Source of the DNA: an uncultured Candidatus Saccharibacteria bacterium
GTDB lineage: Bacteria > Patescibacteriota > CALEFQ01
NCBI GenBank assembly: GCA_965230955.1
Contig: OZ246404.1
Location: forward strand, 97,184-161,183
DNA length: 64,000 nucleotides
Direction: 5' to 3'
Shown: piece after piece, positions 4,344-4,833 of the stretch
Numbering within the stretch: the first letter of the stretch is position 1
How the letters are laid out: every line of letters starts with the position of its first letter
The notes under the pieces: model-generated
Told to the model about the DNA's origin: nothing
The model's database searches: none
Seen by the model: the letters and a program-made list of their open reading frames with translations, nothing else
Position numbers and translations under genes: made by a program

Positions 4344-4459
4344 GCCGAGGTAGCTTCCTACTACGCTTAGCTTCGCTAAGCTTCGTAGGGCAGGCAGTGC
4401 GGTTAATCTACGCTAGCGCTTTACGGGCCCAAAGCCCGACAAAGCCTTGGCGTAGGCGG
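4344..4459 (+). mobile_element. insertion at tRNA-Phe 5' end: 12 nt tRNA-Phe 5' fragment (gccgaggtagct) followed by a ~100 nt element with CTACG/CTTCG-box hairpin and a cttcgtagggcaggcagtgcggtta block
   Basis: gccgaggtagct at 4344-4355 equals tRNA-Phe positions 1-12; the element shares its ends with the tRNA-Val insert at 13995-14117. Confidence 0.5.
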
Positions 4460-4507
4460 GCCGAGGTAGCTCAGTGGTACCTGCCTGCCGGCAGGGAGCA
4501 CAGCACT
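4460..4507 (+). other. partial 5' copy of tRNA-Phe (positions 1-33, to the anticodon loop) with a 16 nt GC hairpin (cctgcctgccggcagg, 4480-4495) inserted in the D-loop
   Basis: gccgaggtagctcagtggta[cctgcctgccggcagg]gagcacagcact, identical to tRNA-Phe 4759-4791 apart from the insert. Confidence 0.6.
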
Positions 4508-4516
4508 AAAAACAAT

Positions 4517-4768
4517 ATGGAGGGATACAAAATTTATGTTCTAAAATCTGAGATCGATGGCCGTCTGTATGTGGGCCTTAGTCAAAACGTCAATAAGCGT
4601 TTGGCTGACCATAAATTTGGTAGGGTATTTGCCACTAAAGGATATAGGCCATGGAAATTAATTTATTCGGAATTTATTGGGTCGAGGAAACACGCTAGAC
4701 GGCGAGAAAAATTTCTCAAAAGTGGCTGCGGAAAAGAATATTTAAAATTTAAACTAACGCCGAGGTAG
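4517..4768 (+). CDS. stand-alone GIY-YIG nuclease (YhbQ/URI-domain-like, 83 aa); its last codons and stop lie inside tRNA-Phe
   Basis: YKIYVLKS...GRLYVGLSQNVNKRLADH...REKFLKSGCG = GIY-YIG signature; ATG at 4517; TAG stop at 4766-4768 is inside the tRNA-Phe 5' end. Confidence 0.8.
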   Translation: MEGYKIYVLKSEIDGRLYVGLSQNVNKRLADHKFGRVFATKGYRPWKLIYSEFIGSRKHARRREKFLKSGCGKEYLKFKLTPR

Positions 4769-4833
4769 CTCAGTGGTAGAGCACAGCACTGAAAATGCTG
4801 GTGTCGGGAGTCCGATTCTCCCCCTCGGCACCA
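4759..4833 (+). tRNA. tRNA-Phe(GAA)
   Basis: GCCGAGG TA GCTC AGTGGTA GAGC A CAGCA CTGAAAA TGCTG GTGTC GGGAG TCCGATT CTCCC CCTCGGC A CCA. Confidence 0.85.

Follow-up and report, generated by a model that had tools for sequence, protein, structure and literature searches.

We describe here a small genetic unit, made of a partial tRNA gene, a short palindrome and a gene for a GIY-YIG nuclease, that stands before an intact tRNA-Phe gene in the genome of an uncultured Candidatus Saccharibacteria bacterium (assembly GCA_965230955.1, contig OZ246404.1, positions 97,184 to 161,183; this whole stretch of 64,000 nucleotides is the window in what follows, and coordinates are counted from its first letter). 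The unit comprises the 5' end of a tRNA gene down to its D-loop, a 20-nt palindrome, about 10 nt more of the tRNA, an open reading frame (ORF) of about 80 amino acids that enters the next tRNA gene, and this tRNA gene, complete. It recurs at tRNA genes of several bacterial phyla. We read the region as one copy of a compact selfish cassette of tRNA genes, partly decayed and reiterated, that would home by break repair, a reading to which we give a probability of about 0.55. Two copies of its 5' part keep the tRNA functional, and of these it is the upstream one that is disabled.

The cassette at the tRNA-Phe gene

The original prediction, made by a model from the letters of the sequence, had placed at this locus an intact tRNA-Phe(GAA), a GIY-YIG ORF ending within the first 10 nt of the tRNA, and a partial tRNA copy split in its D-loop by a 16-nt palindrome. 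All of this is borne out. ARAGORN and the Rfam tRNA model (70.9 bits) recover the intact gene, presumably the regenerated target, at 4759-4833 on the forward strand, which also carries all the oriented features given below. The ORF (4517-4768; 83 aa, single-domain) matches the Pfam profile PF01541 at E=1.3e-13, with 51.5 bits against a cut-off of 22.6, and its TAG stop codon, at 4766-4768, is made of tRNA positions 8-10 (U8-A9-G10). In the partial copy the left arm (4460-4479; blastn E=3e-6) is identical to tRNA positions 1-20. The palindrome CCTGCCTGCCGGCAGG follows at 4480-4495, then the right arm (4496-4512), identical to tRNA positions 21-32 over 4496-4507. Its last five nucleotides (4508-4512, AAAAA) correspond to GAAAA of the anticodon loop, the first anticodon base being changed, and identity then reaches linear position 37. 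Parts of the tRNA (1-20 and 21-32) are thus found as a direct repeat at both ends of the insert. The 83-aa GIY-YIG gene is the sole ORF between the two tRNA-Phe copies, and a recombinase is absent there. CCTGCCTGCCGGCAGG occurs twice in the window, each time at a tRNA gene, where 0.02 occurrences would be expected by chance. The GC hairpin predicted in the D-loop does exist, but it is not arbitrary: it is a form, 4 nt shorter, of a 20-nt palindrome found across phyla, CCTGCCTGCCGGCAGGCAGG, the final CAGG being missing.

Further upstream, the prediction had noticed a third fragment of the tRNA 5' end, 12 nt long (4344-4355). Taken alone this match is weak (E=0.2). With the three bases that precede it, AAC, it makes the 15-mer AACGCCGAGGTAGCT, which is present in the window at 4341 and at the junction between ORF and tRNA, at 4756, only, with 0 occurrences expected in 100 shuffles; 4341-4355 therefore keeps the junction of an older cassette, in which the final three bases of an ORF run into tRNA-Phe 1-12. 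More widely, 4325-4355 is 77% identical to 4740-4770, and 4311-4327 matches 4539-4555, within the ORF, at 16 of 17 positions. Judging from these similarities, 4311-4327 is probably the 5' remnant of an older, internally deleted GIY-YIG ORF. Repeated invasion of one tRNA gene, as first proposed, is supported by this probable relic of an ORF copy upstream of the 12-nt fragment, and by tandem arrays at other loci. Between the fragment and the partial copy lies a GC-rich hairpin element of about 104 nt (4356-4459). Its first half aligns with a homologous element upstream of tRNA-Val(GAC), and its predicted DNA fold has an energy of -41.1 kcal/mol (z=-3.2).

A terminator-like hairpin with a T-run (4860-4880) is placed directly 3' of tRNA-Phe, and a search for a sigma-70-like promoter between tRNA-Val and the ORF found none. 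These two features make it likely that the ORF and tRNA-Phe are co-transcribed with the upstream tRNA array. Because the stop codon belongs to the tRNA, cleavage by RNase P would then leave a non-stop mRNA.

Recurrence in the window and in other genomes

The window holds a second cassette. There, the partial copy of tRNA-His (14338-14389) keeps tRNA positions 1-23 and 27-38, and a 17-nt palindrome, CCCGCCGAATCGGCGGG (14361-14377), occupies the same place in the D-loop as in the tRNA-Phe cassette. A frameshifted GIY-YIG homolog follows (14416-14640; 14413-14639 by tblastn), a pseudogene recognised by tblastn and in the ORF list; it is 37-45% identical to the tRNA-Phe ORF, in two tblastn segments that stand in different frames. 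Directly downstream comes an intact tRNA-His(GTG) (14671-14747, ARAGORN). Two of the nine tRNAs of the window thus carry the ORF. A relic lacking the ORF is seen 5' of tRNA-Val(GAC) (14118-14194), where the tRNA fragment GTGTGTAGCTC is followed by the palindrome CCTGCCTACCGGCAGGCAGG (14001-14020, one mismatch), the whole spanning 13983-14020.

Other genomes were represented by 80 loci, the best of more than 564 confirmed stretches from a scan of one genome per species, with an alignment of 12 closer sequences as the query. They belong to Patescibacteria, Bacteroidota, Omnitrophota and Planctomycetota; some labels reading 'Gammaproteobacteria' are doubtful. The ORF ends at most 130 nt upstream of a tRNA on the same strand in 67 of the 80 loci, and at most 30 nt upstream in 58, for a background of 2% in these tRNA-rich loci. 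The remaining 13 fall into five groups: a group I intron interrupts the tRNA-Asn (L003, L021); the sequence stops about 50 nt past the ORF (L041, L057); a tandem array of ORFs lies downstream of tRNA-Glu (L055); the tRNA is 193 nt downstream of the ORF (L033); or the tRNA is upstream of it (L035, L050, L054, L059, L067, L074, L078). Taken together, the tRNAs linked to the cassette span 17 different anticodons. The proposal that a GIY-YIG cassette with palindromes had invaded repeatedly, leaving an intact tRNA downstream, thus extends to tRNA-His and to most of the 80 loci.

The partial copy recurs too: the first 12 nt of the cognate tRNA are present within 150 nt upstream of the ATG in 54 of the 65 pairs that could be tested, and in none of 65 for the control stretch. 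The copy begins at tRNA position 1, identity reaching further upstream in tandem arrays only, while its end varies with the locus from about position 28 to 72, many ends clustering near 30-33. The ORF ends on the TAG of tRNA positions 8-10 in 26 of 53 homologous ORF-tRNA pairs, so that ORF and tRNA 5' end are physically fused. Mirror-image loci exist as well: the intact tRNA comes first, then the ORF, then a 3' partial copy that has the palindrome in its T-loop (L059) or anticodon loop (L067). The architecture is also present in genomes of isolates, namely Flavobacteriaceae bacterium GF1 (complete genome), Thermoflavifilum thermophilum DSM 14807, Pedobacter cryotolerans and Mangrovibacterium marinum DSM 28823. 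No description of it was found in the searchable full-text literature, which leaves subscription-only publications outside the scope of the search.

At three loci a genuine group I intron (RF00028, 56-86 bits) sits in the anticodon loop of the tRNA-Asn directly downstream of the cassette (L234:845-1420, L021:2247-2794 and L003:~2240-2499). Two different invaders share one tRNA gene there. L234, a contig of a viral collection, has the cassette beside this intron-containing tRNA-Asn.

The palindrome

Whatever the phylum or the tRNA, it is CCTGCCTGCCGGCAGGCAGG, or a sequence close to it, that interrupts the D-loop. Of 65 ORFs, 45 have the canonical palindrome, with at most 3 mismatches, in the 150 nt before them, and in 36 of 43 cases it is placed after linear tRNA position 20-23. 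Since the tRNA sequence is continuous across it, its presence entails neither duplication nor loss of the target. From its end to the ATG the distance is never less than 10 nt, and mostly 10-25 nt. The half-tRNA with its hairpin may be a working 5' leader of the nuclease mRNA, an alternative that the original prediction had also raised. The string itself occurs in no paper of the searchable literature.

The palindrome also leads a life of its own. At least 120 metagenome contigs, and also 35 viral ones, contain exact copies; about 90% of the roughly 160 exact copies listed are more than 400 nt away from any GIY-YIG ORF and more than 600 nt away from any tRNA called. A tRNA or ORF context accounts for about 8-10% of the copies listed. 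As tRNA genes take up some 0.1% of a bacterial genome, the enrichment is large. Direct repeats of at least 8 nt flank 9% of the copies, against 1.3% of control positions. Free palindromes often lie between direct repeats or within short tandem-repeat arrays (L085, L128, L211, L203, L226); in L211 an exact 14-nt repeat stands on either side. Nesting of the palindrome in another copy of itself (L005:1921-1960, L032:1934-1973), to which a 4-nt internal duplication (L080:1946-1969) may be added, suggests from the sequence that it is an independent insertion element. In the clade linked to tRNA-Met(CAT) it accepts central inserts.

Some copies sit in tRNA genes that are otherwise complete. In L001 (3910-4002; 42.8 bits) a second copy of tRNA-Asn has the palindrome in its D-loop, and in the viral contig L227 (2239-2330) a tRNA-Met-like gene, scoring 50 bits with the Rfam tRNA model, has it in the variable loop, where it might be tolerated in a still functional tRNA, much as the long arm of class II tRNAs is. 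That the palindrome would generally target the apical loops of pre-existing hairpins was considered and found unsupported, flank complementarity of at least 5 nt being seen for 9.8% of copies and 6% of controls. The 8-12 nt of tRNA that follow the palindrome might be thought of as a required guide arm; a spacing of at least 10 nt between hairpin and ATG explains the pattern equally well, and the idea stays speculative.

The nuclease

The PF01541 match covers residues 5-69 of the 83, and the protein has no DNA-binding domain. In an alignment of 35 homologs that includes the window protein, Y18, G20, R28, H32 and E64 never vary, and Y7 hardly does; we take these residues to be the catalytic core of the GIY-YIG domain (two tyrosines, an arginine, a histidine and a metal-binding glutamate), as in I-TevI and UvrC. 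Residue N33 is replaced by K in the window protein and in its 74%-identical relative. The AlphaFold2 model (confidence score pLDDT 91.8) predicts three strands and four helices in the alpha/beta fold of the GIY-YIG family, with UPF0213 BH0048, Slx1, the N-terminal domain of UvrC and I-TevI as best Foldseek matches. Over 75 columns, the Slx1 nuclease domain superposes with a root-mean-square deviation of 1.9 A, while UvrC and I-TevI are remoter relatives. Profile comparison gives the same neighbours, 1zg2 (E=1e-10) and 1ywl (E=2.9e-10), which are the UPF0213 proteins BH0048 and EF2693, then SLX1 (3.6e-6). Sequence and predicted structure agree that the protein is a minimal nuclease of SLX1/UPF0213 type, not a modular homing endonuclease.

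A word-indexed search retrieves 35 close homologs, while a profile search over all cluster representatives retrieves 7,218 clusters at 50% identity (E<=1e-10). This large family is annotated merely as 'GIY-YIG nuclease family protein'. Neither the 50,697 phage records nor the 72,556 plasmid records searched contain a homolog at E<=1e-6. Gene calls of the homologs (P0049, P0051, P0061, P0071, P0092, P0150 and others) often start upstream, inside the partial tRNA. The resulting N-termini, such as 'AQWYLPAGR' or 'VELADLPAGRQ', are artificial, being a translation of the tRNA D-arm and the palindrome; this artefact of annotation can be used as a handle in the search for further cassettes.

Signs of mobility and decay

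Perfect tandem repeats of one unit are found at L009 (295 nt) and L077 (319 nt). The loci L035 and L050 make a near-isogenic pair, with flanks that are 93% identical: L050 has a plain tRNA-Arg(CCT), whereas in L035 three or more ORF-less units, each made of tRNA 1-21, the palindrome, tRNA 22-46 and a 28-nt spacer, are inserted exactly at the 5' boundary of tRNA-Arg. In a neighbour-joining tree of the ORFs, which are short, so that the tree is not robust, a clade linked to tRNA-Leu joins Saccharibacteria, other Patescibacteria, Planctomycetota and Omnitrophota. Clades linked to Met-CAT and Arg-CCT are seen within Bacteroidota, and one clade of Patescibacteria mixes Asn, Phe, Lys and Thr. Arrays, ORF-less derivatives and the presence/absence pair point, as far as sequence comparison goes, to mobility. 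The frameshifted ORF at tRNA-His and the ORF-less relics fit the cycle of invasion followed by decay that homing elements go through. An isogenic empty tRNA-Phe site was not obtained, an exact search with the 75-nt tRNA-Phe in metagenome contigs giving 0 matches, and neither the GIY-YIG protein of the window nor the 236-aa protein encoded downstream has a record in the contig index.

A proposed mechanism by break repair

Homing would work as follows. The nuclease would cut the tRNA gene of an empty allele in or near the D-loop, at about A21|G22, where the disabled copy has its palindrome. The break would be repaired off the cassette-bearing allele: its left (5') end would pair with and invade the palindrome-bearing 5' copy, synthesis would copy first the palindrome and the short right arm, then the ORF, then the second 5' part of the tRNA, and the new strand would re-anneal in the intact body of the tRNA, so that the whole cassette would be recreated. 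Out-of-register repair at a locus already occupied would add units and build tandem arrays. The palindrome would render the old copy uncleavable; it would probably be the hairpin recognised by this clade of nucleases, by analogy with the Ssn nucleases (discussed below) and their NTS/SRM hairpins. After fixation the ORF would decay, as the frameshift at tRNA-His and the ORF-less units at tRNA-Val(GAC) and upstream of the tRNA-Phe copy would illustrate. Such a geometry of repair would account for a palindrome at the presumed break site, for a distal arm extending to the end of the tRNA, for the regeneration of the tRNA and for the mirror-image 3' form. The proximal arm would be short because a long one would stop synthesis before the ORF.

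Several observations weigh against this scheme. The presumed D-loop target is read off the place of the palindrome alone. The intact tRNA of the carrier loci is unaltered and would stay cleavable, which is unusual for homing systems and argues against a simple resistance of the carrier allele. Homing explains neither the independent spread of the palindrome, about 90% of the copies listed being outside cassettes, nor the way in which the flanks of a new tRNA species would be gained. It is unlikely, too, that an 83-aa protein devoid of a DNA-binding domain would act as a sequence-specific homing enzyme on double-stranded DNA. Arrays, and the polymorphism between L035 and L050, can be produced by unequal recombination, nuclease-free. 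Finally, no near-isogenic pair of filled and empty loci was found in which the filled one bears the ORF, the L035/L050 pair differing by ORF-less units only.

Alternative explanations

What the palindrome does away from tRNA genes would be natural if the nuclease and its repeat formed a host or semi-domesticated system resembling Ssn, in which a hairpin-directed nuclease of single-stranded DNA has the 20-nt palindrome as its cognate repeat, with no targeted homing. The gene would reside in tRNA operons just for expression, and the partial tRNA duplications would be by-products: hairpin-induced replication slippage or breakage would duplicate adjacent DNA, and the survivors would be those duplications that keep an intact tRNA. 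We regard this as a serious possibility, if one with the odds against it. The copies listed are dispersed, mostly distant from tRNAs and ORFs; direct repeats flank them more often than controls, and they nest in themselves (L005, L032). The palindrome keeps a distance from the ATG like that of an operator or an element of the 5' untranslated region, the ORF lacks a promoter of its own with a terminator standing after the tRNA, and the Ssn precedent (PMC11893778) lends the whole some plausibility by analogy. Left unexplained are the fusion of the ORF to tRNA position 1 with use of the tRNA's TAG in half of the loci, the presence at 17 different tRNAs, the start of the duplication at tRNA position 1, and ORFs that are multi-copy, arrayed and often decayed, which are hallmarks of selfish elements. 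The succession of partial copy, cargo and intact tRNA also has the geometry of attL/attR duplications, as if a small circular or linear element, made of tRNA 5' part, palindrome and ORF, had recombined within the tRNA 5' segment by a Campbell-type, RecA-dependent event, as integrative islands do with tRNA 3' parts. The nuclease would then have its role elsewhere, for instance in addiction or against deletion, and the palindrome would persist because, by splitting the direct repeat, it slows down precise excision. The confinement of the duplication to the tRNA itself, the existence of both 5' and 3' versions, and the fact that the partial copy of every cassette is interrupted by a palindrome, none being uninterrupted, agree with this; the absence of a recombinase and a homology arm of 21 nt, very short for RecA, make it improbable, and it does not tell why the palindrome is nearly fixed in the D-loop and conserved in sequence across phyla.

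The original prediction had wondered whether the cassette was a decayed group I intron with its homing endonuclease gene, since the partial copy breaks in the anticodon loop. The partial copy of the window does end there, many loci have ends near 30-33, and Patescibacteria do have group I introns in tRNA genes (PMC13011429). This origin is nevertheless highly improbable. No Rfam model of a group I intron (RF00028) or other intron matches 3500-5800, even at E<=1, where the same method finds the introns of L234, L021 and L003; these co-occur with the cassette as separate insertions within the downstream tRNA-Asn. The downstream tRNA is complete and contiguous, instead of being a 3' half, the ends of the partial copy spread over positions 28 to 72, and the short distance from palindrome to ATG, with an ORF abutting the tRNA, leaves no room for a ribozyme. 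An artefact of assembly, which had been named as a danger for the prediction, or a chance similarity, may practically be dismissed. Short-read contigs of the same organism that carry the gene for ribosomal protein L19 stop shortly after it, inside the tRNA array, as expected of a repetitive region; the same architecture is found in more than 60 independent assemblies, isolate genomes among them, and chance expectations are near zero.

A more radical view is that a hairpin-scaffolded, target-guided minimal nuclease cassette, together with a 20-bp mobile palindrome, makes something categorically new, which we find doubtful. The cassette would be an intron-less homing element that offsets its own insertion by bringing a spare segment of the target gene. 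For the nuclease, the arms on either side of the hairpin, tRNA 1-21 and tRNA 22-33, would pair with the tRNA gene as a nucleic-acid guide, while the hairpin at their junction would be the handle for the SLX1-like GIY-YIG protein, so that palindrome and arms would provide the specificity. With programmable arms, one family of 83-aa proteins could thereby colonise at least 17 different tRNA genes. This would be, if true, a naturally programmable, hairpin-scaffolded nuclease. As for the palindrome, it would be a 20-bp non-autonomous element, mobilised in trans without target duplication and nesting in itself; if true, this would make it the smallest mobile or non-autonomous DNA element known.

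Relation to known systems

The closest parallel in layout is the Ssn family (cd10448), whose member SsnA, from N. meningitidis, is a 94-aa single-domain GIY-YIG protein that binds a hairpin in a sequence-specific manner and cuts the adjacent single-stranded DNA (Chenal et al. 2025, PMC11893778); the family is characterised by such cleavage, without action on dsDNA or RNA. The likeness is one of size and layout, not a family assignment: a nuclease of about 80-95 aa, reduced to its GIY-YIG domain, with a gene flanked by a conserved hairpin palindrome (20-50 nt), other copies of which are scattered through genomes, in a gene-plus-repeat layout reminiscent of insertion sequences. By analogy, recognition of a hairpin would give its specificity to a nuclease that lacks any other domain. 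The palindrome described here is unrelated to NTS (CGTCATTCCCGCG...GCGGGAATC), however, and stands on one side only, whereas the Ssn arrangement is NTS-ssnA-NTS. The gene here is multi-copy, immediately 5' of tRNA genes and fused to them with partial tRNA duplication, and it is hosted mainly by Bacteroidota and Patescibacteria. The Ssn paper (PMC11893778) nowhere uses the word 'tRNA'.

Free-standing homing endonuclease genes offer a second term of comparison. In T-even phages, GIY-YIG genes of this kind, especially SegB in the tRNA cluster of T4, lie intron-less between tRNA genes, and the inheritance of SegB is favoured by cleavage of tRNA-gene DNA in the allele that lacks the gene, followed by repair from the carrier allele (PMC2330249). 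The cassette ORF is likewise outside any intron and next to a tRNA (abutting it in 58 of the 80 loci). Seg proteins, in contrast, are modular, with nuclease and DNA-binding domains in about 200 aa or more, they are phage-borne, and their genes come with neither partial target duplication nor palindrome. Integrative elements that target tRNA genes (prophages, islands, tyrosine integrases) also replace the part of the tRNA that they displace, leaving an intact tRNA and a fragment. They differ in their size, which runs to kilobases, in coding for an integrase and in replacing the tRNA's 3' part, while the cassette is about 300 nt long and recombinase-free, mostly duplicates the 5' part, and has its fragment marked by a palindrome.

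The nearest relatives of the protein in sequence and structure are UPF0213 (BH0048, EF2693) and the structure-specific endonuclease domain of SLX1. No genomic context or function has been assigned to UPF0213 proteins, and SLX1 is a eukaryotic enzyme of branched DNA that depends on SLX4 and on a RING domain. Finally, REP/RAYT and IS200/IS605 systems also tie short, dispersed intergenic hairpins to one small nuclease gene, and insert without target-site duplication. They use HUH/Y1 transposases with covalent intermediates, whereas a GIY-YIG hydrolase alone cannot transfer strands, and they are not associated with tRNAs.

The cassette thus combines known kinds, namely free-standing homing genes, nuclease/hairpin pairs of the Ssn sort and tRNA-duplicating integrative elements, in what looks like a widespread and apparently undescribed selfish element that spares its target gene by partial duplication. 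Selfish DNA is otherwise made harmless in essential genes by splicing, as in introns and inteins, or by the replacement of tRNA 3' ends by integrases. The cassette would be a third route, about 300 nt long and recombinase-free, in which the 5' part of the target is duplicated. In thousands of genomes these ORFs would find an explanation, as would the tRNA fragments that trouble the annotation of tRNAs. The invariant 20-nt palindrome would tie the family to the newly found Ssn nucleases, offering a natural system in which to study specificity without a dedicated domain, possibly of value as a tool. There is also a bearing on the evolution of tRNA genes and on horizontal transfer among Patescibacteria, Bacteroidota and other phyla.

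Other features of the window

The 17-nt palindrome of the tRNA-His cassette belongs to a motif, CCCGCCGA(A/T)TCGGCGGG, that has three copies in the window (4909-4925, 14361-14377 and 30864-30880) and a two-mismatch variant at 51154. The copy at 4909-4925 lies within a nested hairpin after tRNA-Phe, and that at 30864-30880 is a terminator-like hairpin with a T-run after tRNA-Lys. CCCGCCGAATCGGCGGG was considered as a second family of cognate repeats and set aside, as it also forms this ordinary terminator-like hairpin at 30864 and is missing from the other loci. For the same reasons co-variation of nuclease and hairpin is only suggestive; deep-branching ORFs (L007_527, L004_2300, L069) have non-canonical hairpins.

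Nested GC-rich hairpins that share the form xxxxxx-(G)TAG/CTACG-stem-TTCG-stem-CGTAG/CTTCGT-xxxxxx make up a family found beside most tRNAs of both arrays (3835-3880, 4356-4395, 4835-4870, 4897-4935, 5000-5029, 5168-5206 and 13994-14060). The last one at tRNA-Phe also serves as a terminator, and at tRNA-Gly it is the 5' acceptor strand of the tRNA itself that forms the outer 3' arm. The final 14 nt of this tRNA-Gly(GCC) (5030-5104) recur exactly at 5207-5220, 116 nt downstream, without an ORF and preceded by a nested hairpin (~5168-5206); this duplication of a tRNA 3' end may be the 3' counterpart of the 5' relics. The spacers between tRNAs are occupied by long, imperfect, AT-rich inverted repeats of short tandem motifs (4264-4335, 13600-13710, 13820-13900, 14210-14320), the first of which has 31-nt arms that are 81% complementary. 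They are like the AT-rich repeat arms around many free 20-nt palindromes of metagenome contigs (L142, L125 and L128, for example). Upstream of the array, the gene for ribosomal protein L19 (3193-3774) encodes about 60 additional residues at the C-terminus, a stretch rich in K, E and A.

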